Assembly (NCBI GenBank): GCA_963716725.1
Contig: CAVQUB010000021.1
Span: 32,001-96,000 of the forward strand
Source: an uncultured delta proteobacterium
Lineage (GTDB): Bacteria > Myxococcota_A > Polyangia > Polyangiales > Polyangiaceae
DNA length: 64,000 bases
Reading direction: 5' to 3'
Shown: piece by piece, positions 1 to 20,780 of the stretch
How positions within the stretch are numbered: the first letter of the stretch is position 1
Layout: each line of letters starts with the position of its first letter
Translations under genes and position numbers: made by a program
The notes under the pieces: model-generated
The model's input: the letters and a program-made list of their open reading frames with translations, nothing else
Database searches by the model: none
Told to the model about the DNA's origin: nothing

Positions 1-621
1 CTCGCCGCCGACCGTGATCGTCTCGAAGCTGTGCTCGCTGCCCACCAGCAGCTCTTCGGCGAGAGCGGGTCGGGTCGGCGACGCGGCAATCGCAGTGAGT
101 GCGGCGCGAAGTTCGTCGCCGGTGCGCACGCGCCAGGTCGCAGCGCAGGCCATGCCCGCCGGGGGCTTGAGCACCATCGGTAAGCCGACCTCGCCGACGA
201 AGGCCTCGGCGTCCGCCCAGGAGTGGATCAGGCGGTGTCGCGCGCAGGGCAGGCCGTGCCGGCGGAGCTCGTCCTTCATGCGGGCCTTGTCGCGGAACAA
301 ATCCGCGGTGGCGGGGTCGGTGCCGGGCACCCCCAGCGCTCGGCGCACCTCACCGAGCTGAACCTGGAGCGGCTCGAGGATCCCAAGCACCCGGTGCAGC
401 TTGCCGTGCCGGCGCTGGAGCAGCTGCGCGGCCTCGATCAGCTGTCGGCTGTCGAGCCCGTCGGCGACCTGGACCTGGTCGGCAAAGAGGGCGCGGCTCT
501 GGCCCGCCACCAGCTCTTGACCGATGCCGAGCAGACGCACACCGCTGACGGCCGCCGCCGCGCGGGCGAAGCGCAGGGTGGTTTCCAGTGGAAAGGGCGC
601 GACGAACACCACATTTCGCAT
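1..621 (-). CDS. ATP-grasp domain protein; 3' end lies beyond the window edge
   Basis: Absent from the ORF track because there is no stop in the window. Manual translation from ATG 621: MRNVVFVAPFPLETTLRFARA...FRDKARMKDELRRHGLPCARH...VGLPMVLKPPAGMAC...LAEELLVGSEHSFETITVGGE, carrying ATP-grasp RDK..MK, P.VLKP..G and E.SF motifs. Confidence 0.85.
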   Translation of the reverse strand, partial: MRNVVFVAPFPLETTLRFARAAAAVSGVRLLGIGQELVAGQSRALFADQVQVADGLDSRQLIEAAQLLQRRHGKLHRVLGILEPLQVQLGEVRRALGVPGTDPATADLFRDKARMKDELRRHGLPCARHRLIHSWADAEAFVGEVGLPMVLKPPAGMACAATWRVRTGDELRAALTAIAASPTRPALAEELLVGSEHSFETITVGGE

Positions 622-644
622 GCGTTGCCTTGTACCATCAGCCC

Positions 645-1862
645 ATGAAGGTCGTCTTCCTTGCACCGAGCTACCCGCCCGAAATGCAACAGTACACGCG
701 GGGTCTCGCCGAGGTCGGCGCGGAGGTCTACGGAGTCGGCGACACGCCACGGACGTCGCTGCCGTCATCGCTGAAGCAGCACCTGGCCGACTACCTGCAA
801 GTGCCCCGCATCCTCGACGAAGAAGACGTCGTGGCGCGCGTGAGCGCGTGGCTGCGCGGACGCGAAGTGGATCGCGTGCTGGCAAACTGGGAGGTCGCAG
901 TGCTGACCGCCGCGCGGCTCCGCGAGCGCTTTGGAATGCCAGGCATGAGCGTGGACACGGTGCGTGGCTTTCGTGACAAGCAATTGATGAAGGAGCGCGT
1001 CAGTCGCGCCGGGTTGCGGACGCCGCGGTCGGAGCGAGTGCGCACGTCGACCGAGACGCGCGCCGCGGCCGCGCGCATCGGCTACCCGCTGATCTCGAAG
1101 CCCATCTCGGGCGCTGGCAGCGCCGACACCTTCAAGGTGCGGGACGCGAGCGAACTCGAGAGCGCGTTGGTCAAGATGCAGCATGTAGAGGTCGCCAGCT
1201 GTGAGGAGTACATCAGCGGCGAAGAGTTCACCTTCGACACGGTTTGCGTGGGCGGCGTGCCGCTCTACACCAACGTCGCGCAGTACCTGCCGCCTCCGCT
1301 GCTCGCGCGTAGCGAGGAGTGGATCAGCCCCATCATCATCACGGTGCGCGACATGGACCAGCCGAAGATTGCCGCCGGAGTAGCCCTGGGCAAGCAGGTG
1401 CTCGGCGCGCTGGGCATGGGCGACGGCTTCACCCACATGGAGTGGTTCCGCAAGCCCGATGGCGAGGTGGTGTTCGGTGAAATCGGCTGCCGGCCCGGCG
1501 GAGCGAACCTGGTCGACCAGATGAACTACACCGGCGACATCGACCTGTTCCGCGAGTGGGCTCGGGCCGTGTGCTGGGGCCGCTTCGATGCGCCCACCCG
1601 CCGCAAGTACAACGCAGCCATCATCTTCAAACGGGCCAAGGGCCAGGGCCGAATCACGCGCATCGACGGGCTCGGCTCGTTCATGCGCAAGTACGGCGCT
1701 CACGTGGTGGAAGAACGGTTGCTCAGGCCCGGCACGCCGCGCCGCAACTGGAAGCACACCCTGATCTCGGACGGGCATATCATGCTGCGTCACCCCGATT
1801 GGGAGTCGACCTACGAGATGGCCCAGGCCGCAGCGACCGAAGTGACACTCTGGGCCGAGTGA
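645..1862 (+). CDS. ATP-grasp domain protein (carboxylate-amine ligase)
   Basis: FRDKQLMK, GYPLISKPISGAGS, EEYISGEE, THMEWF, GEIGCRPGG. Start moved to ATG 645 (MKVVFLAP), which matches the N-termini of the paralogs. Confidence 0.9.
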   Translation: MKVVFLAPSYPPEMQQYTRGLAEVGAEVYGVGDTPRTSLPSSLKQHLADYLQVPRILDEEDVVARVSAWLRGREVDRVLANWEVAVLTAARLRERFGMPGMSVDTVRGFRDKQLMKERVSRAGLRTPRSERVRTSTETRAAAARIGYPLISKPISGAGSADTFKVRDASELESALVKMQHVEVASCEEYISGEEFTFDTVCVGGVPLYTNVAQYLPPPLLARSEEWISPIIITVRDMDQPKIAAGVALGKQVLGALGMGDGFTHMEWFRKPDGEVVFGEIGCRPGGANLVDQMNYTGDIDLFREWARAVCWGRFDAPTRRKYNAAIIFKRAKGQGRITRIDGLGSFMRKYGAHVVEERLLRPGTPRRNWKHTLISDGHIMLRHPDWESTYEMAQAAATEVTLWAE

Positions 1863-1872
1863 CGCGCCAACG

Positions 1873-2634
1873 TCACGCCCTTGGCGGCCCATGCGGCCGG
1901 CCTTCGACCCAGCGTCGGTAAGCTGGGGGCGGAAAGAACGCCAGGCCGATGCACAGCGCCGAGATCGTCGCGAGCAGCGAGACGGTGCTCAGCGCCCACA
2001 CGTGCGCGCGGAGCCCTGTGCCGTAGACCAGACGATGCACGATGCTGACGGAGAAACCCAGGGAGGAGCTGCCGATGCCGATGCCCCAGAGCGCCACCCG
2101 GTTGACGACGAGGGGCTGGGCCAAGCCGATGCGCTGGCGCAGGCGCAGGTTGTGGTGCAGCCGAAGGCATTCGATGGCCATCCAGGTCGGCGCCGCGCCG
2201 CGGGCCGCGAGAGCGAGCGGCACGTAGGGGCCGGTGATCGGGGTCAGATCCGAGTAGCGGAGCAGCTCGCCCGACAGCGCTTCCCCGACGAATGCCAGCG
2301 CGATCAGGGCGGTCAGCGTGCCCGCGAGGGCGCCGGCCCACGCTTCGCGCGGACGAAAGACCCGCCATGAGAACGCGATCAGCGCGACGTCGCCAATGCA
2401 CTCGATGGAGAGCCCGATCATGGTGAGGACTTCCCGCTGCTCCACGGTGCCTTCGACGAAGAGCTTGCCGGCCGTCCCGACTGCGTAGGCGAGAAAGCCG
2501 ACGCAGAGCATGGCGACGGCCAAGAGCAGCTCCGGGAGCTTGCGCGTCCGCCACCAAAGCGCGAGCACTCGCAGGCCCACCAGCAGCGACGTGAGCATGA
2601 AGAGCACGAGCCCGCTGACGCTGATGACGCTCAC
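1873..2634 (-). CDS. Multi-pass membrane protein of unknown function
   Basis: About seven hydrophobic segments; start overlaps the stop of the upstream ORF. Confidence 0.7.
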   Translation of the reverse strand: MSVISVSGLVLFMLTSLLVGLRVLALWWRTRKLPELLLAVAMLCVGFLAYAVGTAGKLFVEGTVEQREVLTMIGLSIECIGDVALIAFSWRVFRPREAWAGALAGTLTALIALAFVGEALSGELLRYSDLTPITGPYVPLALAARGAAPTWMAIECLRLHHNLRLRQRIGLAQPLVVNRVALWGIGIGSSSLGFSVSIVHRLVYGTGLRAHVWALSTVSLLATISALCIGLAFFPPPAYRRWVEGRPHGPPRA

Positions 2635-2966
2635 TTTCGGCCCCGCCTGGTGGTGTCGGACTCGAGTCGGTCGAAGAGCTCGTAGGCGGTGTCCTCGTGG
2701 GTGTCCGGACGGGAGGCGCCAACCACGACCAGGTCATGGCAGAGCGCCCGGCAGAGCGACGCGGCGTCGTCCACCTTGCGTTTGGCGAGGGCGGCGGACA
2801 TCAGGCGTTCGAGCACCACCAACATCTGCCGGGAGGTCACGCTGCTCGGGTCGAGGCCCACGTCGCGCAGCACCAGGCGCACGGTGCCGCGGGCCTCGAG
2901 CGCCGACATTTTGGTGCGCGCTTCGAGTTCCGCGCACACCCACTCGAATGTGTTCGAACCGGTCAC
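2631..2966 (-). CDS. Small hypothetical protein
   Basis: 111 aa, helical-looking, overlaps the next gene by 4 nt (GTGA). Confidence 0.65.
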   Translation of the reverse strand: MTGSNTFEWVCAELEARTKMSALEARGTVRLVLRDVGLDPSSVTSRQMLVVLERLMSAALAKRKVDDAASLCRALCHDLVVVGASRPDTHEDTAYELFDRLESDTTRRGRK

Positions 2967-2994
2967 GGGCTTGAAGCCGGAAGCGTAACCCGAG

Positions 2995-4665
2995 TCAGCC
3001 TCTCGGAGCGACCGCCGTGACCGACCCGTCAGGGGAAATGCGGAGGCCGAGGACGCCTCGCTCCCCGGACAGTTCGAGCAGCAAAACGGCAGCGGAACGC
3101 CGCGCGACGAGGTTCATGGAGACGACGCTTCCGGCCAGCACCCGGCGCCCCGACGACACACCGTCGTCGAACACGAGCAGGTCCGTCGCGGCCGGCAGGC
3201 CCCCGGGATCGGCGAGCCGCGCTCGGATCCCCCGGCTGGCCGAGCGCCAAACCACCAGCAGCTTGCCCTCGAGACCGGCGGCGACGACCTCGCCCGACCG
3301 TTTGCCGGTCGGACGGATCGCGTCCGGCGCGCCGTCGAGCATGGCGTCGACTTCGATCTCGCTGCTCACGCAGCCGAGCTTGGTGCAGATGGCGTGCTGC
3401 GCCACGTAGCCGATCGTGTCGGTGTCCGAACGCTTGCGTGATACCTCCACGACCCGAGTCAGCGTGACCGCGCTCCCGCTGCACGAGAGAGCGCGCGCCC
3501 CAGCCTTGGCGTCCGCGCGCAGCTTCGCACGATGCACGGCCGAGGCGGTCTCGCCGGACAAGAACACGACGCGGGAATCCGAGCCGCGCGAGAGCACCAC
3601 GGCCAGCTCTTCCTTGGTACGACAGCCTTCGATGCTGTCGGGCACCAGCTCGATCACTCCGTGATCGACGGGCTTTCCGAGCCCGAGCGGCTCGCGCGTC
3701 AGCGCAGCGGACATCAAGTGATCCCAGTCGTCGTCGTGACCCCGCGCCACCCACACCATTCGGTCCGAGAACAGGCCGAGCCGCTTGAACGACAGGTCGA
3801 GCTCGAGGGGGGTGTCACGCTTCGCGCCCGTCCACGACGAGAGCCTCCACCCCCGATCGGGCTGCTCCGAGGGTTCGAGGGTGACGAAGGAGTCTGCTCC
3901 GTGCGTGTGGGCGTACACGGCGCGATCCGGACTTTTGGCATCGAAGAGCGTGCCGGTGTCGGCGCGGAAGAAGCGCTGCACTCGGCTGTCAGGCAGCAGG
4001 TGATCGCTGATCCATAGCGACCCGGCCTCGTCTCCGGGGGGCCAGAGCACGAAACCCTGGGCGCCAACCGGCGCGTGCTTTGCCAGCGATCCACAGCTCG
4101 CAGCGTCGAGCCGCTCCGAGAAGGAGCAGAGCTTGCTGCGTCCGATGACCAGGTTGAGGCGCGCGCTGGGCACGGGATCGCTGGTGGTCCCCGCGAGCGT
4201 TGCCCGCTCGGCGATGAGCGGCAAACTATCGTCGGGGGCAGCTGCGGCTGGCGGCGCTCTAGGCACGTCGGGCGCTGGCTCGACTCCGGCCACGAGCGCC
4301 GGGATGCTCAGCGCCGTCGGCTCGCGTTCGAAGCGCCCGAGGTCGAAGCCTTTGCCCCAGGCCGCGCGCACCTCGGAAGCGTCGGCCTTCTGCCCCGCGC
4401 GCTCGAGCGCTTCGGCAAGACGGGTCGCCACCGCATCGCATCGCGCCGGCCAATCCGCGGGCGGTCCGCCGATCATGATGCGGTGCAGGCGAAGCTCCGC
4501 GCCTTCGCCCGCCGCGAGGGGCGCGCCCAAGAGACAGTGCGCCAAGGAAGCGGCGGCCACCTGCGCGGCACGAGTCGCTCGCTTCGCCATGAACAGCCAA
4601 GCACCCACGCCGCAGGCGGCGAGCAGCACGACGGCGACGACCCCAGCCACGACTCGCCTCGACAT
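2995..4665 (-). CDS. Membrane-anchored or exported hypothetical protein
   Basis: 556-aa ORF with N-terminal hydrophobic segment; TATCAT box 7 nt upstream of ATG. Confidence 0.65.
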   Translation of the reverse strand: MSRRVVAGVVAVVLLAACGVGAWLFMAKRATRAAQVAAASLAHCLLGAPLAAGEGAELRLHRIMIGGPPADWPARCDAVATRLAEALERAGQKADASEVRAAWGKGFDLGRFEREPTALSIPALVAGVEPAPDVPRAPPAAAAPDDSLPLIAERATLAGTTSDPVPSARLNLVIGRSKLCSFSERLDAASCGSLAKHAPVGAQGFVLWPPGDEAGSLWISDHLLPDSRVQRFFRADTGTLFDAKSPDRAVYAHTHGADSFVTLEPSEQPDRGWRLSSWTGAKRDTPLELDLSFKRLGLFSDRMVWVARGHDDDWDHLMSAALTREPLGLGKPVDHGVIELVPDSIEGCRTKEELAVVLSRGSDSRVVFLSGETASAVHRAKLRADAKAGARALSCSGSAVTLTRVVEVSRKRSDTDTIGYVAQHAICTKLGCVSSEIEVDAMLDGAPDAIRPTGKRSGEVVAAGLEGKLLVVWRSASRGIRARLADPGGLPAATDLLVFDDGVSSGRRVLAGSVVSMNLVARRSAAVLLLELSGERGVLGLRISPDGSVTAVAPRG

Positions 4666-4695
4666 CGGGGCGATGATAGCGCCGAACGCCGAAGC

Positions 4696-5820
4696 TCAGG
4701 GTGAATCGCAGTCGCTCAGCTCGCTGAGCGGGACCAAGAGCTGCGCATCGTCCGCGAGCTTCAGCCACCGCGCCTGGGGAACGGACACCTGGACGAGGGC
4801 CATCCGCTCTTGACGGCCTGGCGGATCGGCGCCCGGAGGCGCCGCCGGCGGCTCGAGGCTGTTGAAGAACGTGCCCTTGCGAATGATGCCGATCTTGGCG
4901 CGCGCCCCGCCGGCCTCGGCGACGAGCGTGAGGTCGCGAGCGCACTTGCGATTGCCTCGCGCGCTCGAGGAGCGAGACCCGAATCTTCCAAGCCCGATGC
5001 CGTAGCCGCTGCCGCCTCGCCGAGGGCCGAGGTCTGCCGAGGCGACCCAACCGAAGAGCACGAAGCTCGAAGCATCGACCAAGATCCTGGTGTGGAGCCC
5101 GCGAACCTCGACGACCTCGACTCCGATGCCCTGCCGAAGCCGCGCCGAAGCCGTCCCAGCGCGCTCCGCCGAGAGCTCGGCGCCAGCCCGGGCGACGTCG
5201 CGTTCCGTCAGGTTCTTCCGCCGGGTGACGTGCTCGCGCGCCGAGTATTCGACGGCGTTCAACACGATGAGCTCGCAGGCAAGGCGATCCGTCACCAGCT
5301 CCGGCGATTCGAGCAGCTTGCTCGCGTCGAGGCCCACATCGAGTGAACCCGCCGCACCACCCACCCAGGTCAGCGCAGCCGACGACTTGGGGACTAGGAT
5401 GCCTGCCAACGCGTGGGCCTTCGCAGCGCGCAGCGTCACGTCCGCTTCGCGCGCGAAACCCCTCACGATCAGCTGTCCGTCATCGAACACCGCCGTCGGC
5501 GCCGCGGGCGCACCCGCGGGCATGACCAAGGTGACCGGCGCGTTGGTGACGCTCGCAAACGCGGGTCCACCCTGGCGGATCAGCAAGCTCGACAGTGACC
5601 ACTGCTTCTCGACGATGCGGCAGGCGACGCTCGCGGGCTCGTGCACCACGGGCAGAGTCGGCACGGCGTCGACGGGGGACGTCTCGGCCCCGGCGCTGGC
5701 GGCCGGAAGGGGGATCTCGATCTTGGTGGGACCCGGTTCGCCGCTCGGAGCTGGCGCTGGCCCTCGCGCCGCGCAACCCGAGATCGCGACGGCGGTGAGC
5801 GTCCACGCCGCGCTCCGCAT
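4696..5820 (-). CDS. Putative lipoprotein
   Basis: Lipobox-like AISGC followed by a Pro/Ala linker. Confidence 0.65.
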   Translation of the reverse strand: MRSAAWTLTAVAISGCAARGPAPAPSGEPGPTKIEIPLPAASAGAETSPVDAVPTLPVVHEPASVACRIVEKQWSLSSLLIRQGGPAFASVTNAPVTLVMPAGAPAAPTAVFDDGQLIVRGFAREADVTLRAAKAHALAGILVPKSSAALTWVGGAAGSLDVGLDASKLLESPELVTDRLACELIVLNAVEYSAREHVTRRKNLTERDVARAGAELSAERAGTASARLRQGIGVEVVEVRGLHTRILVDASSFVLFGWVASADLGPRRGGSGYGIGLGRFGSRSSSARGNRKCARDLTLVAEAGGARAKIGIIRKGTFFNSLEPPAAPPGADPPGRQERMALVQVSVPQARWLKLADDAQLLVPLSELSDCDSP

Positions 5821-5825
5821 GGTCT

Positions 5826-6746
5826 TCAGTCCACCGCGCGCCCGACGAAGAATCCGTCGGAACCCAGCGCCTGATAGAGCGGCAGGAGCACCAGGCAGTC
5901 GTTGGGCGCTCGGATTTCTCCGCTGCGGTCCCGCGCGATGAGCGTGCCCGCGGTGGTGGGATGAATGGTGGTGAACCCGGGCTCCATCCTGAAGTCGTGA
6001 TCCGGCGCCACGGCGTGGCGCGAGAGCACCTCGATCAGCTTGGGCAGAGCGCCCCGGGCCCGCTCGAGTACCGCGTTTGCGTCGTCGATCTCGGGCAGGT
6101 GCTGCTTCGCAAAGACCCCGCTCGCCACCAAGGCGACGGTCACCGCGGCGACCAGGTGGTCACGCGCCTTGGCGCCATCGTGCTGTCCGCCCTCCACCGC
6201 AAAGGTCACGCAGCCACGCCGGCCGAGGTAGCTCGTGAGCACACCGGGGAGCTGGCTCTCGAGGCCCACCATGCACGGCAGCGCAAAATGCGAGGCGAAG
6301 GCCCGATGCTCTTGGGTGGGACCCACGACGCCGAAGGGCGTGCCTTCGGAAGAGGTCGTGTGCAGGTCGAGCACGTACACCGGACCGCGGGCGCGGGCCA
6401 TGATGGCGTCGATGGCATCCGCTAGCTCTACGGTCTCGTGGAACTCGGCCTCAGCCGGATCGTCCGTGGCGGCAGCAACCATGCCGCGCGCCTCGACGAC
6501 GCGGTCTTCGGTCCATTGGCGGTTCAGATCGCGGTCGAGATAACGTCTCCGCGCGACCAGCGCCCGAAGGTTGCCCGCGAGCGCGATGACCTCACCCACC
6601 AGCGGCGTCTTGTCGTGCCGGAGGCGCGACAGCACGATGCGCGCCGCTTCCATGCCGGCGGGCTCGTTGCCGTGCAGCCCACCGACGAGGATCAGCGTTG
6701 GCCCCGGCGCGCTGCCAGCGATGCGATTGATCTGTCGAGCGGTCAA
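5826..6746 (-). CDS. Succinylglutamate desuccinylase/aspartoacylase family (M14-type Zn deacylase)
   Basis: GGLHGNEPAG, RDLNR, LDLHTTS and VEGG motifs; coupled to the upstream gene (TTGA overlap). Confidence 0.88.
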   Translation of the reverse strand: MTARQINRIAGSAPGPTLILVGGLHGNEPAGMEAARIVLSRLRHDKTPLVGEVIALAGNLRALVARRRYLDRDLNRQWTEDRVVEARGMVAAATDDPAEAEFHETVELADAIDAIMARARGPVYVLDLHTTSSEGTPFGVVGPTQEHRAFASHFALPCMVGLESQLPGVLTSYLGRRGCVTFAVEGGQHDGAKARDHLVAAVTVALVASGVFAKQHLPEIDDANAVLERARGALPKLIEVLSRHAVAPDHDFRMEPGFTTIHPTTAGTLIARDRSGEIRAPNDCLVLLPLYQALGSDGFFVGRAVD

Positions 6747-8739
6747 AGATCGTCCTCCTGGCTCGGACCGAGCAGACTACCAGCGTCCACGAAGCTCTTG
6801 AGCTCCGGCTCGCGGACCGGGCTGATCCCCAGCTTTTGCTCGATCAGCTTGTGAGCGATGGGCAAGAAGTCCTCGGTGTTGACGATGCCGACCAGGCGCT
6901 CGTTCTGCAAGACCGGCAGGCAGCCGATCCGGTAGCGCTGCATCAGTTTCAGCGCGTCGAGAGTGTCCGTCTCGGGCGTAATGGTCTTGACCTCGCGGCG
7001 CATGATCTTGGACACGGGAGTGTCTTTGGTGGAGCCGCCGGCCGCAAGAAAGCGCAGCAGGGACCGGTAGCTGACCAGCCCGATCAAGCGGTGGTCCTTG
7101 TCTTCCACGGGGATGTGCCGCAGCCGCTCCCAGTCCATCAGAATGTTGACCATCTCGACCGGGTCATCCGCGTGGACCGTGAACAGATCCGTGGTCATGT
7201 ACTGATCCACTTTGAGATAATTGTGGTGCGAGGCCGACGCCTCGTCGAGGCGAGCGCGTTCCCATTCGGCGACCGGACGCCGAGTGAGCTGTCGCTTGAC
7301 CGTGGCCGCGACCAGGGCGTTGGCCTTCTCGCCGGGGGTGCCCTTGTCTTTCAGCGCGTTCCACGACAAGAGCTGCCAGCGCGCGCCGGTGCGCGTGCTG
7401 CGAACACGCGCGTCGACGACGCCAAGGTAGCGCTTGATATCTGCCTCGTCGACCTTCTGGCGCCGGAGCCCGGACTCCGCGATGGGCAACAGCTTGTCGA
7501 GCACGAGAGGAACAGCAGCGACGTCCTTGCCGTCGAGCCAGCTGAAGGTCGAGCCGAGCCCCTCGCGGGCGGCGGTGTAGAAGTTCGAGCCCGCCGCGTC
7601 GAAGTCCATCCGTTTGTCGGCCTCGAAGCCCCGCGCCCCGAGCTCCGCCATCATCCCGAACCAGAAGGCTCCGTTCGCGACCTCGTCGACGACGCTGGGC
7701 CCCGCGGGCATCACGCGGTTCTCGATGCGCAGGTGCGCCTTGCCGTCGGTGACGCCGAAGCAGGCGCGGTTCCATCGGTAGATGGTGCCGTTGTGCAGAC
7801 GCAGGGCCTTGAGCTGCGGCAGCTCGCCGCGGTCGAGGACCGCCATCGGGTCTTCGTCGAGGTCCGTGCCGACGAGCGTGCGGAAGCGCGCGATGTCTTC
7901 CTGGAAGATCTCGACGATGGACTTGCGCACCCAGCGCGTGCCGAAGCTGACCCGGGCCTCGCTCTCGCGCAGGTGCAGGTGTGGCTGCGCGTGTCGACCG
8001 CCTGTCGGAAGAGCGCGATGCGCGTCTCGGCCCACAGCCGGCGTCCGAACAGGAGCGGCGAGTTGGCCGAGATCGACATCATGGGCCCGGCCAGGAGCTG
8101 CGCCAGGTTGTACATGCGCGCGAACTCCGCCGGCTCGACCTGAAGGTGGACCTGGAAGCTCGAGTTGCAGGCCTCGACCATCACCGAGTCGTGCTCGATG
8201 ATGAGCTCGTCGAGCCCCTTGATGGAGATCTCGAACTTGCCGTCGCGCAGCTCGTGCATCGACCTTGCCGAGGGTCTGGTAGCGCGGGCTCGGCACCATG
8301 TTGTCCAGGCCGAGGTCGCTCTTGCGCATGGTCGGCAGGATGCCCATCAGCACCGGCTGCAGGTCGATCTCCGCGGCGGCCTTGCGCGCCTTCTCCATCA
8401 GCTCGTCGAGCTGCCTCTCCATGCGCGAGAGGCCATCGCCCGCCAGCGGCTGAGGATCGCAGTTCGCCTCGAGCTGGAACAGGCCGAGCTCGGTGGTGAA
8501 GTGATCGTCGTCCAGACGCTTCGAGCATCTCGAGGGCGCCCGGCGCCGGGGCCCAGGCCTGATCGACCAGGAACATCTCCTGCTCGGCGCCGATGCGCCG
8601 CACGCCGGTCTCGAACAGACCCTCCTTCAGCATGCGCTCGAGCGCGCGCAGATCCCCGAGAATCGCGTGCGGTGAACTCCCGGCGCTGCTGCGCGTCACT
8701 CTCGGGGTCCACCGCTTTGTGTGATCTCGTAGTCGTCAT
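6743..8739 (-). CDS. Glutamate--cysteine ligase (GCS2) family protein with C-terminal CBS pair; frameshifted in this sequence
   Basis: Pieces in three frames: RIGAEQEMFLVD; GILPTMRKSDL; EACNSSFQVHLQV..SANSP; NGTIYRWNR..LRIENRVMPAGP; CBS MTTDLFTV..RHIPV..GCLPV. Confidence 0.85.
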
Positions 8740-8752
8740 CCCCAGCCCCGTC

Positions 8753-9493
8753 TCACTTGGTCCATTCGGTCGAGGTACTGCGGCAGCATCTTGCGCCAAG
8801 TCACCCAGTCGTGGTGCCAGTCGCGGCCCCACGAGTCGACTCGGTTGGGGATGCCCTGCGACCCAGCGTGTTCGCCATCGCCCACGACTCGCCGATGTCC
8901 TCGGCGCGACCCTCGCCGCTGCACATCAGGATGAAGCGCGTGCGCAGCACGTCGAGGTGCCGGCCGGCCAAGCGTCGGCACGAAGTGGAGCGGCGACGAC
9001 ACCCAGAACTCGTCGCTGAAACTCGCTCGGCGTCGTAGAAGCGACGAAGGTCGTAGGTCCCGCTCATGGCGAGCGCGCGGGAGAAGACGTCGGGGAAGCG
9101 GCACACCATCGCGACCGCGTGGAACGCGCCGATCGACGCGCCGGCGGCCCAGATCTCGATGTCCGGCGTTCTTGCAGTCGGCTCGGATGGCCGGCACGAC
9201 CTCGTGTCTTGATGTAGTAGTGGAACTGGTTCTGCATCCACATCTGGTGGCGGGCGGAGCCCGCGGCGCCCGAGCAGCGCTTGCCCGGCCACGCTGTCGC
9301 ACGAGTAGACCTTGATGCGTGCCGGCGTCGAGCAGCGGCGCGAGCGCGTCGATCATGTGGAAGCGCTCGATCTCCTCGGCGTCGCCGCCGGCGGTGGGGA
9401 AGATCAGCACGGGCTGCCCGAAGCTGCCCCACCGCAGCGAGCGTGACCTCGCGCTCGACAGCGCGGCGAGTACCAGCGCTCGACGGTCTTCAT
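8753..9493 (-). CDS. Putative esterase (alpha/beta hydrolase); frameshifted
   Basis: WGSFGQPVLIFPTAGGDAEEIERF; nucleophile elbow GASIG; AMSGTYD; WGRDWHHDWVTWRKMLPQYL across frames. Confidence 0.8.
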
Positions 9494-10762
9494 GCTCGCG
9501 GCTGCCTGCCTGCGTCGGCGCGCCACGTTCTGGACCCGATTCCAGAACAGCTCGGTGAACTGCTCGACCTCGTGCGCCGGGAAGAGCGCCGCGACCTTCT
9601 TGCGGACGGCGTCCTTCGCGTCGGGCGTGCCGAAGAACTCCCAGGCGACCTCGTCGAGGTGCGGCAGGTGCTGCTGCGCAGAACTCCTCGAAGCGCGCCG
9701 TCTCGAAGCGCTCCTCGGCGATGCGCCGCGTAGGCGCGCGAGCTTGTCGCGGTAGGGCATGCTCCGCATCGGCCGCGACCTCGTAGAAGGGCGCCCAGTC
9801 CAGGTTCATGCGCAACGGGCCGCTTCGTCACCGCGCAGAAGATCGCACCAGCGGATGTTGGCCTTCACGCAGCCACGGGAAGTGGTAGTGCAGCGACGTC
9901 ACCTGCGAGTCCGGGCAGGGGTTGGCGAAGTCGATGGGGTACCAGACGCCGTCCTTGCGCAGCGACTCGCAGGAGTTGAAGTCCCAGCCGAAGAACGCGT
10001 TGATGGTCAGCGTGATGTCGCGCAGGGGCTGCGCGTCGTCGCCGGCGAGGAAGTCGCCTCTTGGTCCATGGTGTAGCGGTCGTGGAGCGGCGCGTCGGGG
10101 TCGTAGCGCACGATGCGGGTCTGCGGGCCGAGGCCGATGCAGCGCACGAAGCGGTCGAAGGGCTCGCACCGCCGCCTGCAGGTGCATCACCAGCTTGCCG
10201 CTCTCGTCGTAGCGCCTTGCGCAGCGCCGCCTCGTCGTCGATGCGGCTCACCGCCCTCCAGCCGCCGCCGTCGTAGGGCTTCATGAACATCGGATAGCCG
10301 AGCGTTCGCCCGATCTTGCCGAGGTCGAAGAGCTTGGCGTAGCTGCTGGAGCGTCGGCTTGCAGGTCCGGCAGCGGCTCGTAGCTCTTCGGCGGCACCAT
10401 CCAGGTCTCGGGGATGGGCATGCCGAGGTGCATCATGGCGCAGTAGGTCGTGTGCTTCTCCATGGACTGCACGGACCACGGGTTGTTGAACACGTAGAGG
10501 CCGTCCATGAGGATGGCCTTCTTGATCCACTCGCGGCTGGTGTGATACCAGTGCGTGAGCCGGTCGAGCACGACGTCGTAGCGGCACGGCTGGCGCAGAT
10601 CGAAGGGCTCGATGGTGACGCGCTCGACCTCGAAGCCGACGCGTGTCGCCCTGCCAGTCGGGATGGCGAGGTCGAGCTGCTGCAGGATCTGCTCGTAGCA
10701 GAGCGGCCAGCAGATGTCGGCGCCGAGCGAGAGGCCGATGTGCGCGTGACGATCGTCGCCAT
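9490..10762 (-). CDS. RimK/glutathione-synthetase-like ATP-grasp protein; frameshifted
   Basis: LDRLTHW, VFNNPWS, LGMPIPETW, GYPMFMKPYDGGGW, DFNSCE, IDFANPCPD distributed over several frames. Confidence 0.8.
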
Positions 10763-10776
10763 CGATCGTGTTCCCT

Positions 10777-11920
10777 CTACTCGTAGACGAACAAGCAGCG
10801 GACCGGGGAAGAGCCAGGACAGGCCCTCGCGCAGGCGGTCGCGCCAGTTCTCCCAGTTGTGACCGTCGCGCGCCTCGACGAAGCGCACGTCCATGCCGGT
10901 GGCCTGCGAGCAGCGGCGACGAGCGAGCGGTTCTCGTAGATCAGCGACTCGTAGATGCCGCAGCTCACGAAGATGCGCTCGGAGATCGGCGATCGGGCCG
11001 CGCCCGGAGCTGGTTGACGAACTCGACCACCGGGTCGAAGAGCGGGCCGCGGTGGTTGCGGTCGCCGATGTCGGTGAAGGCGAACGAGCCCGACTGCAGC
11101 AGCAGCCGCCCGAAGAAGCCCGGGTAGCGGCACGCGGTGGAGAGCGCGGCGACGGCGCCGAAGCTCGCGCCCATCAGGCAGCGCGCCTGCGGTCGACGTC
11201 GAGCGGGAACGCGCGCTCGAGCTGCGGCACCAGCTCGTCGGTCGAGGAAGCGCGCGTGGCGCTCGTCGTTGGCGTACTCCACGAGCCGGTCGGGCGAGCT
11301 CGTCAGCGCCACGATCATGTCGGGGATCTCGAGGCGGTGCGATCAGGTTGTCGAGGATGGTGCCGAGCGCCGCGTAGCGCAGGTAGTCGTGGCCGTCGTG
11401 CACGATCAGCAGCGGGTAGCGGCGAGTCCTGCGGAAGCGCGCGGGCAGGTAGATCTCGAGCCGGCGCCGGCCGAAGACCTTGGAGTCGAGCACGAGCTCG
11501 TCGATCTGCCGGGTCGCGACTCGGGATCGGGGTAGATCCAGGTCGGGACCTCGTAGCCCTCGCCGTGCGCCACCGAGTTCGCGCCGAAGGGGTCGCGGGC
11601 TGGTTGCGGGGTTGAGCGGATCCTCCATCCACTCGCCGTTGCCGCCCGCGAACGACCTCGAGCTTGTACTCGACCCGCGAGCTGGGCGGCAGCTCGAGCG
11701 TCAGGTACCAAACGTCCGTGCCGTCGACGCGGGTGAGCTGCTGGGACGACGGCAGGCCGAAGACCCAGTGCTTGAGGTGGATGGCGTCGGCGTCGCCGCG
11801 GAAGACGAAGGTGATGGCCGGCCCCTCGACGATGGGGAAGGACCTGCCCGCGAAGAAGGCATCCACCGCCTCGGCGGTGCGCGGGCCCTGGGCGAGCTCA
11901 GTGATGGCGCGGGCGCTCAT
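10777..11920 (-). CDS. Enterochelin-esterase (Fes)-like alpha/beta hydrolase with N-terminal Ig-like (E-set/CBM48-like) domain; frameshifted
   Basis: ITFVFRGDAD..DVWYLTLELP..RVEYKL..DPLNP; IYLP..YPLLIVHDG; GASFG; LQSGSF; EARDGHNWENWRD. Confidence 0.8.
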
Positions 11921-12867
11921 CCGGACCATCCCCGCTCGATGGTGCCGTCGCCCCGAGTCGGCGGCAGATGGCGCTGGCAGACGCGGCCCTCTGCGACGTG
12001 CACGCGGGCGCCCGTGTCCATCGCCACGCAGGTCGCCGGCGCGATGCGCTGCACGAAGCGCGCGATGCCCGCCGCGTCGTCGAGTCCGAATTCGACGCCG
12101 CGGATCGGGCAAGCACAACCAGGTCGTTCACCAACCCAAGACCACGGTCGAGGATCTCCGCGATGCCGGTGCCGTGGGGTGGAAAGTCATGGAACAAGTA
12201 GATGCGTTCGGTCAGCACCATGGCGCCGGCCGCAGCGGCGAACCAGCGCTTGTCCTTGGCGAGGCCGACCAGGTCGAAGAGTTTCATCCGATTCAGGAGC
12301 GAGACGACGTGGCCGCCCATGACCACGATGGCCTCGACGCCCCGCAGAATGTCCGCGAGCTCGGCGCGGTGCTGGGCGACCGCGGGGCGCTCGGCGAGGC
12401 GCCACTGCTCCTCGAATCGCTCGTGAGCGGTCTGACAACGCTCGAGGTGATCGCCGTCGAGTTGTTCGAGGGCCTCGACTGACTCGTGACGCTCCTCGGC
12501 CAGGAGATCTTCGTCGACGTGTCGGACCGAGATGGCGTGTGCCGCTTCGAACTGCGTGCTCCAGCCGGATGCGGTAGAAGTCGTTGACCAAGCGCAGGCG
12601 CGCCTGCTTGCGACTTGTGCGCCGCGGAAAACTCGGGATCGGCCGCGAAGACCTGCTCCGAGCGCGCGTGCAGCGTGAGGTTTACGAGCTTCGATCGCCG
12701 ATGCTCTCGATCAAAGCTTGGTCGTCGGCCTCGCGCTCCTGCCAGCCGGCGGTGACCAGCGCCACCGGCCCACGAACGCCAGCGATCGCGAGCGCCGCGC
12801 CGACGTCGGGGACGGGTTGCTGCGGACCGAGCAGAACTACGTTGGGAACGACGCTCAGTTGGCCCAC
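11917..12867 (-). CDS. Class I glutamine amidotransferase-like / peptidase S51 (cyanophycinase-like) protein; frameshifted
   Basis: VALVTAGWQERE, VMGGHVVSLLNR, AGAMVL..HD..PHG..E..GLGL. The nucleophile region is garbled by indels. Confidence 0.6.
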
Positions 12868-14082
12868 ACTTTCACCGTCTGACCGACGATGTCGAACATG
12901 CGCCGGAGCTCGTCGTAGTTCTCGTGCTTCAGCCGCAGCCAGGCGTTGGCCATGTAGCCAGCCTCGACGGGCTGCGTGCTGCGTGCCTGGCGGCGGGGTA
13001 TGCGCGTCGATGATGTGCTGACCGAAGGACTTTCCGATGGCTTCCAGCCCTTCGTAGCCGCTGATGCGACCATCTTGGCTGGGGCGCAGCGCGATGATGC
13101 CGGCCGACAGTCTCCGCGACGGGCGCTGGCTCGGCCGCCCGTGGCAGATGGTCATCGCCCACTCGCGGTAGAGGTCCATGTCGTTGCCGACGTTGTAGAG
13201 ATCCCACGCGCGCACGCCCGGCGGGCGGCAGCCGATCTCCGAGAACTTGAGGCCCTTTGGCCCGAAGAACCACTCCATGTGCGTGGCCGAGGTCTCGATG
13301 CCGAGCAGCTCGATGACCTTGCGACCCATCGCCTTGACCTCGTCGTAGCCCGAGGCCGAGTCGATGCGATTGGTGGCGATGAACTGCGGCGAGATCCAGC
13401 GCGTGCGCATGGCCTCGAGCACGTTCGGGTAGTAGTGCGTGACGAACTCGTGCACGACCTGCCCGCTCGATGCTGAGCGTGTCGTAGAAGCCCTCGTGGC
13501 CCTCGATGAACTCCTCGACGGCGATGGAGCGGCCCGGCTGCCCAAGGCGAGAAGCCGCCCAAGATCTTGCTCAAGTCGGCCAGGCTGTCGGCTCGGTAGG
13601 CCCCGGAAGCTCCGGCCGCGTCGCGCGGCTTCAAGATCACCGGGAAGCCGATCTGCTCCACGAAGGCGCGCACCTCAGCCACGCTCGACGCGCCGGTGGA
13701 TGCGCGCAAGACACCCCGCCAGCGCGCAGCGCCTCTTTCATCGCCGGCTTGTCGCGGCACAGGAAGGCCGTCCGCACCGAGGTGCCGGGGATGCCTGCGG
13801 CCTCTCGCACCTTGGCGATCGGCATGATGTGCGCCTCGACGGTGGCCTCGAGGCGATCGACGTGGGCCCGCTTCTGGATGAAGCGCAGCGCTCGCAGCAC
13901 CGCGCCCTCGTCGCAGACGATCCGACCTCTTCGTAGTGCAGGAGCCAGCGCTTGAGCTCGTCGTCGAGCGAGTCCTTGCTGCCCTCGCCGATGGCCGTGA
14001 CCGTGGCGCCGACCTCGGCGAGCGCTCGCACGAAGAGCTTCTGGTTGCCGGGAAAGCGGGGCTCGATGAAGACGACGTGCAT
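12855..14082 (-). CDS. ATP-grasp domain protein (third paralog); frameshifted
   Basis: MHVVFIEPRFP, CRDKPAMKE, GFPVILKPRDAAGA, THMEWF, SEIGCRPPG. Confidence 0.85.
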
Positions 14083-14127
14083 GGCGGTTTCTTTCACGAA
14101 GGAGTCGCGACGATCAAGGGCTTGATT

Positions 14128-15584
14128 TCACAACCTCTGGAGTCGCTCGTAGAGCTGTTCGTACTGTTTGGCCTGCACCGCCCACGAGAAGTCCTGCGCC
14201 ATGCCGTTTTGCATGAGCCTTCCTCCAGGTGGCGGGGTCTTTGTAGTGCGCAAGGGCGGCCTCGATGCCCCAAGTGAGACCCTGAGCGTCGTGGTTGCTC
14301 GAAAGGGAAGCCCGTGCCGCGCCCCGTGCGTGAGTTGAAGAGCTGCACCGTGTCGGCGAGCCCGCCGGTCTTGTGCACGATGGGCACGGTGCCGTAGCGC
14401 AGACTGTAGAGCTGGTTGAGACCACAGGGCTCGTAGCGCGAGGGCATCACGAACATGTCCGCGCCGGCCTCGATCAGGTGCGCGAGCTCGTTGCTGAAGC
14501 CGCGGTAGAAGCAGACCTGCCGGGGGAAGGTGCGCTGGAGTGCGCCGAACATCTCTTCGAGGTGGTGCTCGCCGCTGCCGAGCAGGACGAACTGAAAGCC
14601 TGGCGCCGCAGCAGACGGCCGAGCACCCCCGCCAGGAGGTCGAGCCCTTTCTGGCCGACCATGCGCGTCACCGAGCCGATGACCGGCGTGCCGCGCCGGT
14701 ACTCGAGGCCGAGCGCGCCGAGCAACGCCGCCTTGTTGCGCTCTTTGCCGGACAGATCCGTCGCGCCGTAGGCGGTGCGGAATGAAGCGGGTCGTGCTCG
14801 GGGCTCCACTCGTCGTAGTCCACACCGTTCAGGATGCCGACCACCGTCGATTTGCGCATGCGCAAGAATGGATCGAGGCCGGCGCCGTGCTCGGGCGACT
14901 GGATCTCTCGCGAGTACCTCGGGCTCACCGTGGTGATCCCGTCGGCGTAGAGCACCCCGTGCAGGAGGAAGCTCAGGCGACCCTCGCTTCAGGTAATCCT
15001 GATGGAACAGGTGCGCGGCGCGCCGCCAGGCCGGTTTCGGGCAGCACATGTGCCGGGAAAATGCCCTGGTATTGCAGGTTGTGGATGGTGAGCAGGCTGC
15101 GCGCACGGGAGAGCAAGGGATCCCGCGCATAGCTGCTCTTGAGCGCGAGCGGGACGAGGGCGGTCTGCCAGTCGTGGCAGTGCACCACGTCGGGCGCGAA
15201 GCGTAGCCGGCGGCAGGCTTCGAGGGCGGCAAACGAGAGCACGAGGAAGCGCAGATGCTCATCCCCGTCGGCGGTGTAAATGCTGGAACGGGAGAACAGC
15301 TCGGGGCTGTAGACGAAGTAGATCTCGAGGTCGGTCCCGGGCAGGATAACGCTGGCGATGCCCACGCTGAAGCGGCGGGACCCGAGCTGGATCTGCACGG
15401 GTCCGAGTCCAGGCAGCGGCCTGAGGCGGTATTTGCGTTGATCGATCTGCGCGTAAGCCGGCAAGAACACGCGCACGTCGTGGCCGAGCCTGTGCATCTG
15501 CCGCGGCAACGCGCCGAGCACGTCTGCGAGCCCCCCCGTCTTGGCGAATGGCGCCATTTCTGGCGCGATGTACAGGAGCCGCAC
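14128..15584 (-). CDS. glgA: Glycogen synthase (GT5); frameshifted
   Basis: APFAKTGGLADV, HCHDWQT, TIHNLQYQG, TTVSPRYSREI, GILNGVD, MPSRYEPCGLNQLYSLRYGT, KTGGLADTV. Confidence 0.92.
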
Positions 15585-15766
15585 GGGAGCCGCACGATGA
15601 CACAAGACCGAGCGCGCGTCCCATCCGTCGCGGCTCGAGGGCTGATTCTCCCCGGGAACAGCGCTCGCACCGGCGCGAGTTGCGGGCGAAGGGGCGGGCT
15701 CGAGCCCGCGCTCCCCGCACTGCCGTTGATGGGCACGCCACGCCGAGGCAGAATGCGCCGGGGTAG

Positions 15767-17305
<1,539 letters not shown>

Positions 17306-17317
17306 GCCACGCGGCGC

Positions 17318-17779
17318 TCACTTGTCGAGCCGCGCCTTGAGCGCCGCCAGCTCGTCGTCGACGGAATCGTCGGGCGCCGGGCTCGGAGCTCGCGCGGGCG
17401 GCGCCGGCACGCGGAGCTTGGCGGAGGGGCTGACCGCAGCGGAAGCAGTCGCCGCTGGCCTGAGCTTCCGCGCGGCGCGATTTCGCCAGCGGTGGCGTCC
17501 GTACAGGGCCGCGAGGCCGACCAGCCCGGCGAGAAAGAAGTACTGCCAGTAGGAGAGCACCATGCCGACGACGCCGAGCACGAGCAAGAGACCGACGGCG
17601 CCGAGCACCAGCAGCTTGGTGCGCTTCTTCCTCTTCTGTTCGGCTTCGCGTTCGGCCCGCTCCGCCCGCTCTTCGTCCGTCGACAAGGCGTCCTCGAAGG
17701 CGCGCTTGGCGGCGCGCTTGGCTTGGCCGAGTGCAGCCGTGGCCGTCAGCTCTTCCGCCGCTTTCTTCAGGTCTGCCAT
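17318..17779 (-). CDS. Small membrane protein
   Basis: Two hydrophobic segments; C-terminal VDDELAALKARL resembles a PspA-like tail. Confidence 0.65.
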   Translation of the reverse strand: MADLKKAAEELTATAALGQAKRAAKRAFEDALSTDEERAERAEREAEQKRKKRTKLLVLGAVGLLLVLGVVGMVLSYWQYFFLAGLVGLAALYGRHRWRNRAARKLRPAATASAAVSPSAKLRVPAPPARAPSPAPDDSVDDELAALKARLDK

Positions 17780-17797: not shown

Positions 17798-18703
17798 CTA
17801 CAGCCGGAGCAAGTCGCCGAGACCCAGACGGTCCATCCACGGGAAGGGCAGCCGCACCTGGGAGCCGAAGTGCTCGGTGGACATCGGCTCGAAGACCACG
17901 GTGATGGTCGAGAACATGACCAACTCGGCGAGCAACTTCAGCTTGCCCCGCATGCTCTCGAGCGAGATGGTCACACGCTCGAGCTCTCGCTGAACCTCCA
18001 GGGACTCTTCGACGGTCTTGGCCTTTTCGAGCAGGTCTTCGAGGCGCTTCTTCACGACCTCGAGGTTCTTCATGCGGGTCTGCATGTCGAAATAGAGATC
18101 GGTCACGTCCTCGATACTGACGTTTCGGTGCACCAGATCACCGAGCCGCACCAGCTCGTCGAGCGCGTCGTCGAACCTGGCGCTGGGAACCCGCACGGTG
18201 ATGCGACTGTCCTCGCGCACGACCAGATAACCGCCTCGTCGTTTGGCGAGCTTTTCGACGGCGTCAATGGCCTTCGGAACTTCGCGCACGCGCAGCCGCA
18301 GCTCGGCGGTGTACACGAGCATCTGCGAGGCGACGGTCGGCTTGGCTTGCCCATCGGTGGCGGGCTTCGAAGACTGTCCGGCGACGGGCTGCTGGGTCGG
18401 AGGCTGTGGTCGCTTGTCGGCCTCGGGGCGCGCCTTCGCAGGGGCCGGTGCTCCGGTCGCTTCGCTTCCGGCCGAGTCTGTCGCGGACTCGGGCGAGGGA
18501 GCGGGCGGCGGCGGCGGGGACTCGGACGCCGACTCGTCCATCATCGCCACCTCGTCCACGCTCTCCGCGGAGCGCCCGGCGCTCACCGACTGCGCGTAGG
18601 CGCCGCCGCTGGGTCCACGGTCGGCGCTCTTGGCCGATGCGCCGCAGCCCACGAGGGTGAGCAGCAACAGACAGAAGAGACCCCAACGCAGCGCCTGGTT
18701 CAT
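17798..18703 (-). CDS. DUF4349-family lipoprotein
   Basis: Lipobox LVGC; ITVRVPS..F, EDVTDLYFD, coiled coil, STITV. Start placed at ATG 18703. Confidence 0.8.
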   Translation of the reverse strand: MNQALRWGLFCLLLLTLVGCGASAKSADRGPSGGAYAQSVSAGRSAESVDEVAMMDESASESPPPPPAPSPESATDSAGSEATGAPAPAKARPEADKRPQPPTQQPVAGQSSKPATDGQAKPTVASQMLVYTAELRLRVREVPKAIDAVEKLAKRRGGYLVVREDSRITVRVPSARFDDALDELVRLGDLVHRNVSIEDVTDLYFDMQTRMKNLEVVKKRLEDLLEKAKTVEESLEVQRELERVTISLESMRGKLKLLAELVMFSTITVVFEPMSTEHFGSQVRLPFPWMDRLGLGDLLRL

Positions 18704-18758
18704 GGCGGGCCGAGCGTACCACGCGAACAGGCCGGCGGCGGCCCAGGTCGAGACCTCA

Positions 18759-19227
18759 GAGCCTGTGAAAGAATCCCCGCCGCCCACGAAGGAAGGAGCA
18801 CCGGCAGCGCTTCGGGGTCGCCGGCATGGGGGCGAGGCGCGCGAGGACGCTGGGTCGGGTCTGTGCGGAGCCGCGAGCAGCAGTGTCGCGGACTGGGCGC
18901 GAGCGCTTCCGACCTGGACGCCTTCCCGCCCGGAGCTCTACCGCGCTCGAAGGCGAAACGGTCCTGCCAAGCGTCAGTTCCGGACCCACTGCGCTGCCGC
19001 TGACAAGGACCTGAGGGGGCGTCCCGTGCACGACCCTTGGAAGTCCCTGGCGAGGGACGACCCTTGGAAGTCCCTGGCGAGGGACGACCCTTGGAAGTCC
19101 CTGGCGAGGGACGACCCTTGGAAGTCCCTGGCGAGGGACGACCCTTGGAAGTCCCTGGCGAGGGACGACCCTTGGAAGTCCCTGGCGAGGGACGACCCTT
19201 GGAGGGGGGCGTGCAAGCACCGTCCCA
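18759..19227 (-). mobile_element. Inverted, internally deleted relative of the neighbouring IS1182-family element (MITE-like)
   Basis: 19205-19227 and 19018-19040 are each 19/23 inverted matches to 20740-20762 and 20765-20787. 18991-19002 is an exact 12-nt inverted match to 20802-20813. 18759-18775 matches the IS right end in inverted orientation at 12/17. Confidence 0.55.
19030..19203. repeat. Perfect 27-bp tandem repeat, six full copies plus a partial
   Basis: CGACCCTTGGAAGTCCCTGGCGAGGGA starts at 19031, 19058, 19085, 19112, 19139 and 19166, with a partial at 19193; no spacers. Confidence 0.97.
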
Positions 19228-19458
19228 CGCTCGGCGTCACGAGGGAAAGAGCACCGCATCCCCATTTCTTTCTTGACGCGGTTCCAGGCGACTCGGGCTC
19301 GCACTTCGCCGGGCATGTCACCGAAGGCCTCTCTGTTGCGCGACGAAGCTCGCCCATCGTGTTTCGCTCGAGCGACGACGCGCGACGCGTTTGGACGCGT
19401 GAAACGCGCTCACCGTGTCGGCCGCGAGGCCAAAAAACAGCGTGTTATGCCAGAAAGC

Positions 19459-20742: not shown

Positions 20743-20749
20743 GACGGTT

Positions 20750-20780
20750 CGTGCACACCCCCGACAAAGGGGGGTGCACG
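20750..20780 (+). other. GC-rich hairpin just after the HNH stop, inside the IS left end
   Basis: CGTGCAC-A-CCCCC / GACAAA loop / GGGGG-GTGCACG. Confidence 0.55.

Follow-up and report, generated by a model that had tools for sequence, protein, structure and literature searches.

The first 15.6 kb of the window, a 64,000-nt stretch of contig C21 (GenBank CAVQUB010000021.1, assembly GCA_963716725.1, here genome G000) from an uncultured member of the Polyangiaceae, encode a module of ATP-grasp ligases and hydrolases together with a glycogen synthase (GlgA) of family GT5. The module is conserved across many phyla and undescribed in the literature searched, and a glycogen synthase lineage of its own accompanies its sub-module of ATP-grasp enzymes of the L-amino-acid ligase (LAL) type. 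Judged by the enzyme families involved, the module may link amino-acid or peptide groups through ester bonds to an alpha-glucan in a write/erase cycle, a reading to which we assign a probability of roughly 0.38. More generally, an amino-acid-derived partner may be attached to bacterial glycogen or take part in its synthesis. The literature search, which did not cover the 2009 survey of Iyer et al., returned no paper with both glgA and ATP-grasp and no such cluster; no product assigned to this gene set was found in it, in line with the initial annotation of this DNA.

Coordinates refer to the window, and gene limits were set by tblastn with the proteins of G005, a genome of the same genus. The gene content and order first described for the minus strand are borne out by intact same-genus orthologues, and the five ligases and four hydrolases counted there are all recovered in the tblastn map. 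glgA is present as described, but starts near 15605 and not at 15584. Two further ATP-grasp paralogues, said to lie 4 kb away, are found at 1-1859, the gap being occupied by three genus-specific genes. The genes are:

14131-15605, minus strand: glgA, cluster-type GT5 glycogen synthase, in at least 6 frame pieces, the good ones 89-92% identical to G005 (tblastn)
12858-14118, minus strand: AG1, LAL-type ATP-grasp protein, in 4 pieces; the G005 orthologue matches Pfam ATP-grasp families
11920-12849, minus strand: S51-like/class-I-amidotransferase-like hydrolase, in 3 pieces
10790-11950, minus strand: Fes-like PF00756 serine esterase with an N-terminal E-set/starch-binding-like domain
9527-10742, minus strand: U416, putative ATP-grasp ligase, unclassified, initially called RimK-like
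8756-9437, minus strand: Est2, small (~245 aa) PF00756-type serine esterase
6746-8736, minus strand: GCS2-CBS, accessory GCS2-type carboxylate-amine ligase with two CBS domains (Pfam CBS 89 bits)
5829-6746, minus strand: accessory AstE/AspA-type M14 deacylase (PF24827), intact, 87% identical to G005 in a single frame
4699-5820, minus strand: U374, no family match, genus-specific
2998-4665, minus strand: U556, no family match, genus-specific
1876-2634, minus strand: U253, no family match, genus-specific
401-1859, plus strand: AG2p, LAL-type ATP-grasp paralogue, 87% identical to G005, with Pfam ATP-grasp on 549-1859
1-621, minus strand: AG3, N-terminal half of a LAL-type ATP-grasp paralogue, 88% identical to residues 9-215 of G005 AG3; the gene extends beyond the window start

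The loci of three genomes of the same genus (G001, G002 and G005) are collinear with window positions 5-15600 at about 78-85% nucleotide identity (about 83% for the G005 locus, L016/L140), and their genes are open. The G005 locus reads glgA (490 aa), AG1 (421 aa), S51-like (310 aa), Fes-like (394 aa), U416 (416 aa), Est2 (245 aa), GCS2 with two CBS domains (665 aa), AstE/AspA (306 aa), the three unnamed genes (374, 556 and 253 aa), AG2p on the plus strand and AG3 on the minus strand. Gene junctions, taken from the open reading frame (ORF) coordinates of the intact same-genus loci, are mostly overlapping or shorter than 30 bases, and the start of G005 AG1 overlaps the glgA stop. The junction between the Fes-like gene and U416 is variable, being tight in the window (10750-10777), longer by ~370-790 bases in G001 and G005, and occupied in G002 by a 6.6-kb insertion with several ORFs (L013 4015-10664).

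The signature gene of the module is U416, which is also its most conserved member, with 63-80% identity between phyla. A U416 alignment was used to search a species-level genome collection, yielding at least 571 confirmed relatives, and the best 80 of these, each with flanks of up to 10 kb, make up the locus set: 41 are from Myxococcota, 16 from Planctomycetota, 6 from Acidobacteriota, 5 from Pseudomonadota, 4 from Eiseniibacteriota, 2 from Gemmatimonadota and 1 from Binatota, and 5 are unassigned. For tblastn searches of these loci with 13 G005 proteins, hits had to reach E<=1e-8 over 40% or more of the query, and the best assignment without overlaps was used; counts out of 40 refer to loci having at least 9 kb on both sides of U416. 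The Fes-like gene was found in 35/40, the S51-like gene in 33/40 and Est2 in 29/40 loci, and the invariant core of the module consists of S51-like, Fes-like and U416, joined by Est2. AG1 (24/40), AG3 (22/40) and AG2p (21/40) form a sub-module in which three LAL-type ATP-grasps travel with their own GT5 lineage: 18/40 loci have a GT5 gene no more than 10 kb from U416 (16 at 40% identity or more), all of them among the 30 with LAL ATP-grasps and none among the 10 without. GCS2-CBS (13/40) and the M14 deacylase (8/40) are lineage-restricted accessories added in Myxococcota and a few other phyla, and look like a write/erase pair for an acidic amino-acid derivative. GCS2-CBS was considered as a core member and rejected, being solitary in four genomes (G037, G009, G012 and G028) and missing from the module in two (G033 and G040). 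The set is thus no single fixed nine-gene operon; it comprises an invariant core, a glgA that goes with the LAL ATP-grasps, and accessories. Nor does glgA share an operon with the ligases everywhere, as it is divergent from them in other lineages.

Co-occurrence of the ligases with glucan genes had been set beforehand as a test of the idea, and the presence of GT5 near U416 in several phyla favours a functional link. GT5 linkage spans Myxococcota, Planctomycetota, Acidobacteriota, Binatota and Gemmatimonadota. Across all 80 loci, 34 carry GT5; in 25 of these it is 700 bp or less from AG1, and the 34 loci show 20 gene orders, including divergent, convergent and downstream placements. No P value is attached to the linkage counts because related genomes are not independent. 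The module itself is widespread, occurring in Myxococcota, Planctomycetota, Acidobacteriota, Gemmatimonadota, Binatota and Eiseniibacteriota. De novo clustering of 3801 ORFs from the 80 loci added no recurrent family to the ten already named, and methyltransferase, acyl-CoA transferase and siderophore genes did not recur either; other large ORF clusters were read, by strand and position and not each checked, as antisense or alternative-frame shadows. The module is probably cytoplasmic, and no signal peptide was obvious by eye in the printed N-termini of the core proteins (no predictor was run).

The GlgA proteins linked to the module constitute a clade apart from canonical GlgA, which is the outcome of the tree placement that the initial annotation had suggested. 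In a tree of 53 GlgAs, the 31 linked sequences form a single clade (SH-aLRT 100) together with that of G040, in which the module sits on a different contig from its cluster-type GlgA. In a 56-row tree, to which second, unlinked GlgAs from two Planctomycetota and one Binatia genome bearing the module were added, a branch supported at 90 sets the identical 32 rows apart. Excluded from the GlgA tree were high-scoring segment pairs shorter than 80% of the query and row L120, which contains a stop. The clade spans four phyla; outside it fall unlinked GlgAs of the same order as well as the second copies in module-bearing Planctomycetota and Binatia. Linked copies of other phyla are 43-63% identical to G005 GlgA, as compared with 27-43% for unlinked copies of the window's own order. 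With a profile built on the clade, its members, including 8 sequences that the profile does not contain, reach 677-808 bits, and no other GlgA exceeds 531.

The presence of this lineage follows that of the module. Among 41 relatives, cluster-type GlgA (at least 760 bits) is found in 9 genomes and as the broken copy of G000, and all 10 have orthologue-level U416, while 30 genomes have neither. An eleventh U416 genome, G036, is split into 1220 contigs, and its module contig begins at S51. Counted by genus, 5 have both U416 and cluster-type GlgA, 1 has U416 only and 29 have neither. Nine further module genomes without GT5 within 10 kb were inspected, and 5 of them carry cluster-type GlgA elsewhere. 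Other GT5 types can take the position next to AG1: a divergent GT5 follows AG1 at three loci (L055, L066 and L083), and a canonical-type GlgA is present at two Longimicrobiales loci (L106/L110). Since the cluster clade, the divergent type and the canonical type all occur there, the same slot is filled by three GT5 lineages. G000 has a second GT5, also divergent, on contig C15.

Cluster-type GlgAs retain the hallmarks of glycogen synthases. They score 523-545 bits on TIGR02095 (523.6-528 for the same-genus orthologues; cut-off 328.45), matching canonical copies. The motifs KTGGL (present in G005 GlgA), SRxxxQKG and EPCGL are invariant among them, and 26 cluster-type sequences share K22, G24, G25, R313, K318 and E391-P392-C393-G394 without exception. 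These features bear on the possibility that the module makes a small soluble compound, such as a di- or tripeptide bearing a glucosyl or acyl group, that serves as compatible solute or signal, with GT5 glycosylating this metabolite and not elongating glycogen. ATP-grasp and GCS2 enzymes in series do resemble step-wise peptide synthesis such as that of glutathione, the CBS pair suggests metabolite sensing, and the only 5 residues specific to the cluster clade all lie in the N-terminal half of GlgA, which presumably binds the acceptor. The synthase-level scores and invariant catalytic motifs argue against a solute-glycosylating role, as does the finding that cluster-type GlgA is the sole GT5 found in three genomes (G051, C147; G053, C14; G054, C46), and three or four hydrolases would be many for a solute pathway. 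We consider this explanation unlikely.

That glgA merely lies beside an unrelated operon by chance, or that the window holds a decaying pseudogene array, is very improbable. Synteny within a genus is by itself uninformative, and many frames in the window are broken: on the minus strand between 5.8 and 15.6 kb the coding frame shifts every few hundred bases in a plot of G+C at third codon positions (GC3; overall G+C of the window 68%). However, the linkage recurs in several phyla despite rearrangement, the co-occurrence of cluster-type GlgA with U416 (10/10 versus 0/30) speaks for a link, and the same-genus orthologues are intact. The rpoB gene of the same assembly (C3:13588-17665) is equally split, appearing in 12 matches in several frames, so that the frameshifts are attributed to genome-wide assembly indel errors. 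Gene decay is unlikely because the window pieces are so close to the G005 proteins, and with the rpoB fragmentation this led us to discard the pseudogene reading. Frequent indel errors across the G000 assembly (35 contigs) also explain its completeness estimate of 84%. Indel counts from blastn against G005 were dropped as a measure of the error rate, since paired alignment artefacts in divergent stretches dominate them. Public DNA sequencing runs matching the window number 20, with a best share of 0.33, and come from biofilter and wastewater metagenomes; no RNA run was among them.

Pfam was run on every stop-to-stop piece of the region (105 on the minus strand and 106 on the plus strand). The GT5 starch-synthase domain is found in three pieces (14976-15863, 14671-14988 and 14097-14828), the glgA matches being to Glyco_transf_5 and Glycos_transf_1; further matches comprise esterase fragments, an Enterochelin_N fragment, the CBS pair, an intact AstE/AspA domain (5829-6776) and the plus-strand ATP-grasp gene. 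The GCS2-CBS ORF (6743-8422, minus strand, 559 aa) seems intact, with residues ~54-150 read in the wrong frame. The GC3 maximum changes frame at 8001-8200 and same-genus matches are split between frames; a compensating pair of indel errors keeps this ORF open.

U416 is an unclassified ATP-grasp enzyme. Pfam gives no match on the G005 U416 sequence. The initial assignment as RimK-like holds at the level of the ATP-grasp superfamily, with an hhalign probability of 97.5% against AG1, but not for RimK itself, as U416 fails the RimK/LysX families (TIGR00768, 24.1 bits, cut-off 143.4; TIGR02144, 23.8 bits, cut-off 275.6). Dala_Dala_lig_C matches 26 of 43 U416 members. The nearest known proteins are Ddl, VanA and LysX, over the ATP-binding core only, and a C-terminal region of ~110 residues matches nothing. 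U416 relatives are numerous: of 8000 proteins scored, 6315 match at E<=1e-20; at E<=1e-3 there are 1464 representatives, and an Atlas cluster has 8601 members. Among the 120 matches listed, the named ones are annotated as hypothetical protein, with one exception. Longer relatives (P0006, P0023, P0062, P0102 and others) revealed no new domain; in P0102 the end of an esterase runs into U416.

The remaining ligases belong to better-known groups. AG1-AG3 are assigned by similarity to the LAL group of ATP-grasp enzymes: the AG1 profile matches the LAL 4WD3 (E=1.3e-21), BacD (7e-15) and BL00235 (7e-13) in the PDB, and G005 AG3 matches ATP-grasp and, weakly, LAL_C2. The GCS2 protein of G005 scores 40.2 bits on PF04107 (cut-off 21) and only 23 on TIGR02050 (YbdK, cut-off 176.4), and its fused CBS pair scores 91 bits.

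Two conserved serine esterases are encoded in the core. The Fes-like protein of G005 matches Esterase (63.6 bits) and Enterochelin_N (29.9 bits), and its GxSxG and His residues are at least 95% conserved across 67 sequences. An identity as enterochelin esterase Fes was rejected, the score on the equivalog NF007758 being 105.9 bits (cut-off 222) and no recurrent siderophore genes being nearby. In the PDB, the N-terminal domain is best matched by 1AC0, a starch-binding domain from glucoamylase (E=0.0028, compared with 0.68 for enterochelin esterase). Residues W87, Y101-K102, W113 and D116-P117-N119 (G005 numbering), aligned to 1AC0, are kept in 56-67 of the 67 sequences, and these W, YK, W and DPxN positions may correspond to starch-binding residues of glucoamylase. 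Est2 scores 29.7 bits on Pfam Esterase in G005, with G116-x-S118-x-G120 and H227-D228 at least 95% conserved across 56 sequences.

The S51-like hydrolase matches Peptidase_S51 at E=4e-4 and 20.5 bits, under the cut-off of 23.9; among its Atlas neighbours, PF03575 occurs in 21-44% of members. The nucleophile column of 61 sequences holds Ser in 42, Cys in 12, Ala in 6 and Gly in 1, and given the Ser/Cys exchange at the elbow this is therefore probably the true nucleophile position. The window's genus, which has the Ala type, also has the extra GCS2-CBS and M14 genes. The deacylase ORF of the window scores 70.8 bits on PF24827 (cut-off 25) and falls well under the cut-offs of the aspartoacylase and AstE equivalogs.

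We hypothesize that the dedicated GlgA would make alpha-1,4-glucan while the ATP-grasp ligases would activate amino-acid carboxylates as acyl phosphates and assemble a short amino-acid or peptide substituent that is probably acidic, at least one of its bonds being an ester to a glucose hydroxyl. The putatively glucan-binding Fes-like esterase and the small esterase Est2 could remove these substituents, and the S51-like enzyme, together with the M14 deacylase where present, might degrade the released peptide. In this way amino acids would be stored or masked on glycogen through a cycle of writing and erasing. An ester-decorated glucan is preferred because of the two conserved serine esterases, the starch-binding-like domain, the kinship of U416 with Ddl and VanA, and the recruitment of three GT5 lineages. 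VanA makes an ester and so shows that the fold is capable of it. The broader idea that many bacteria possess a second, decorated glycogen, esterified by ATP-grasp enzymes with amino acids or short acidic peptides to give a combined carbon-nitrogen reserve polymer, is a speculative extension that we regard as rather unlikely.

Several points weigh against an ester-decorated glucan. LAL-type ATP-grasp enzymes normally form amides and not sugar esters, and every substrate assignment made here is drawn from family membership. The core occurs without a nearby GT5 in 22/40 loci; among module-bearing genomes, two (G046 and G050), of uncertain completeness, showed canonical GlgA only, and in two others (G047 and G052), likewise of uncertain completeness, no GT5 was found. 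Where cluster-type GlgA is the sole GT5 found, it may simply be the housekeeping glycogen synthase, and the clade-specific residues that set it apart from canonical GlgA are few. No glgC was found in G000 or G005 (94% complete) at E<=1e-10, although it is present in G002 (C1:2698933-2700063). For the Fes-like N-terminal domain, CBM_20 (19/27, best 1.4e-4) and CBM_48 (12/27, best 2.1e-3) match at E<=1 but stay under the Pfam cut-offs, Enterochelin_N (26/27) fits the same domain better, and its apparent fold would by itself be no proof of glucan binding. The presumed S51-like nucleophile is Ala in the window's own genus, with FAAAAGAM in the window (12111-12356), G001, G002 and G005 (loci L015, L013 and L016) versus FAW[S/C]AGAM in most relatives; in this genus the protein would be either inactive or work in another way. 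Finally, an AlphaFold2 model of U416 from a 3-sequence alignment was unusable (mean pLDDT 34.7).

Some of the same observations would fit a separate, free oligo- or poly-amino-acid reserve, possibly a depsipeptide, that is co-regulated with glycogen as a carbon/nitrogen store while nothing is placed on the glucan. LAL-type enzymes, which include the best PDB matches 4WD3 and BacD, and S51 peptidases act on free peptides, the accessory GCS2 and AstE/AspA families handle small acidic amino-acid derivatives, and the core does persist without a nearby GT5 and in genomes without cluster-type GlgA. A free reserve leaves unexplained why a distinct GlgA lineage and not the resident canonical copy tracks the module, why three GT5 lineages have been recruited beside AG1, and why the main esterase has a starch-binding-like domain. 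In addition, a canonical cyanophycin synthetase is already encoded elsewhere in these genomes. We regard a free reserve as the main rival, only slightly less probable than the decorated glucan.

The closest known free reserve is cyanophycin (CphA with the S51-type CphB/CphE), with which the module would share the logic of a reserve and has in common ATP-grasp enzymes, here predicted to make a non-ribosomal amino-acid product, beside an S51-like hydrolase. AG1-3 match the ATP-grasp part of CphA weakly (E 1e-8 to 1e-9). The cluster lacks a CphA-type fused synthetase with a Mur-ligase-like domain, the best TIGR02068 match having E ~1e-8 over ~100 residues. The S51-like protein differs from the cyanophycin hydrolases by its sub-threshold Pfam score and its Ser/Cys/Ala nucleophile column, and the two serine esterases and glycogen synthase have no counterpart there. 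Genuine cphA genes (1137-1147 bits, cut-off 850) are located away from the module in G002 (C3:2441848, 1146.8 bits), G005 (C50) and G012 (C20), and G000 has cphA in pieces on C2. Because the canonical cphA sits at another locus, the module is not the cyanophycin system. A shorter second CphA-like gene follows the cyanophycin synthetase in G000 (C2:83559-88050, frame-split) and G002 (C3:2441848-2446334).

For an ester-decorated glucan, the nearest precedent is mycobacterial methylglucose lipopolysaccharide (MGLP), which is made by a dedicated glucosyltransferase distinct from that of bulk glycogen. Its writers are acyl-CoA-dependent transferases and O-methyltransferases, as opposed to the ATP-grasp ligases that are the candidate writers here; it also belongs to other phyla, and neither type of gene recurs near the module. 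MGLP is a cytoplasmic alpha-(1->4)-glucan to whose glucose units acetate, propionate, isobutyrate, succinate and octanoate are attached as esters (PMC4555173), and so offers a precedent for ester decoration of such a glucan.

On the ligase side, AG1-3 are clear sequence relatives of the stand-alone LALs RizA, BacD/YwfE and BL00235, but the known LALs act in antibiotic or dipeptide pathways and are not found beside a glycogen synthase. U416 shares its ATP-binding core with Ddl, VanA and LysX, while its score below the RimK family cut-off and its own C-terminal region separate it from RimK. Iyer, Abhiman, Burroughs and Aravind reportedly predicted, in 2009, neighbourhoods that make and break amides, in which ATP-grasp and GCS2-like COOH-NH2 ligases are combined with peptidases; we know of no amidoligase neighbourhood from that work that includes a glycogen synthase.

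Set against the classical glycogen pathway (GlgC/A/B/P/X), the cluster GlgA scores as a glycogen/starch synthase and has retained its catalytic motifs, but constitutes a separate clade that tracks the ligase module. The absence of glgB, glgC, glgP and glgX from the window, stated in the initial annotation, extends to the whole of contig C21. Elsewhere in G000, glgB is found on C7, glgX on C7 and C30, and glgP on C11 and C20.

The genus-specific genes U374, U556 and U253 (1876-5820) trail the M14 gene with gaps of less than 35 bases, and their N-termini, read by eye, resemble a lipoprotein signal or membrane anchor. They were found at 0/40 loci and, being present at none of the 80 related loci, were rejected as module members. 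Between the window and G005, the 374-aa protein shares just 45% identity, as against 71-87% for its neighbours. On the other side of the module, a Ser/Thr protein kinase is divergent from glgA, in a region comprising 15767-17302 (plus strand), 17801-18937 (minus strand) and 19015-22702 (plus strand); beyond the kinase follow a DUF4349 protein, an ORF with an HNH motif, DUF772 and DDE transposase fragments, and a PD-(D/E)XK nuclease. A promoter and terminator scan of positions 1-17500 gave 1 promoter-like and 3 terminator-like sites, not above shuffled sequences.

An eight-to-ten-gene glycogen partner system with its own GlgA lineage would represent an overlooked common feature of bacterial storage metabolism, and more than 6000 relatives of U416 exist in public data. 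The enzymes of the module, four ligases and three hydrolases, are directly testable. If the product is indeed attached to the glucan, a new biopolymer would result, and formation of its sugar ester would be a new ATP-grasp reaction, of a class not seen before among LAL- and Ddl-like enzymes. If the product is separate, the module would provide a new amino-acid reserve alongside cyanophycin.

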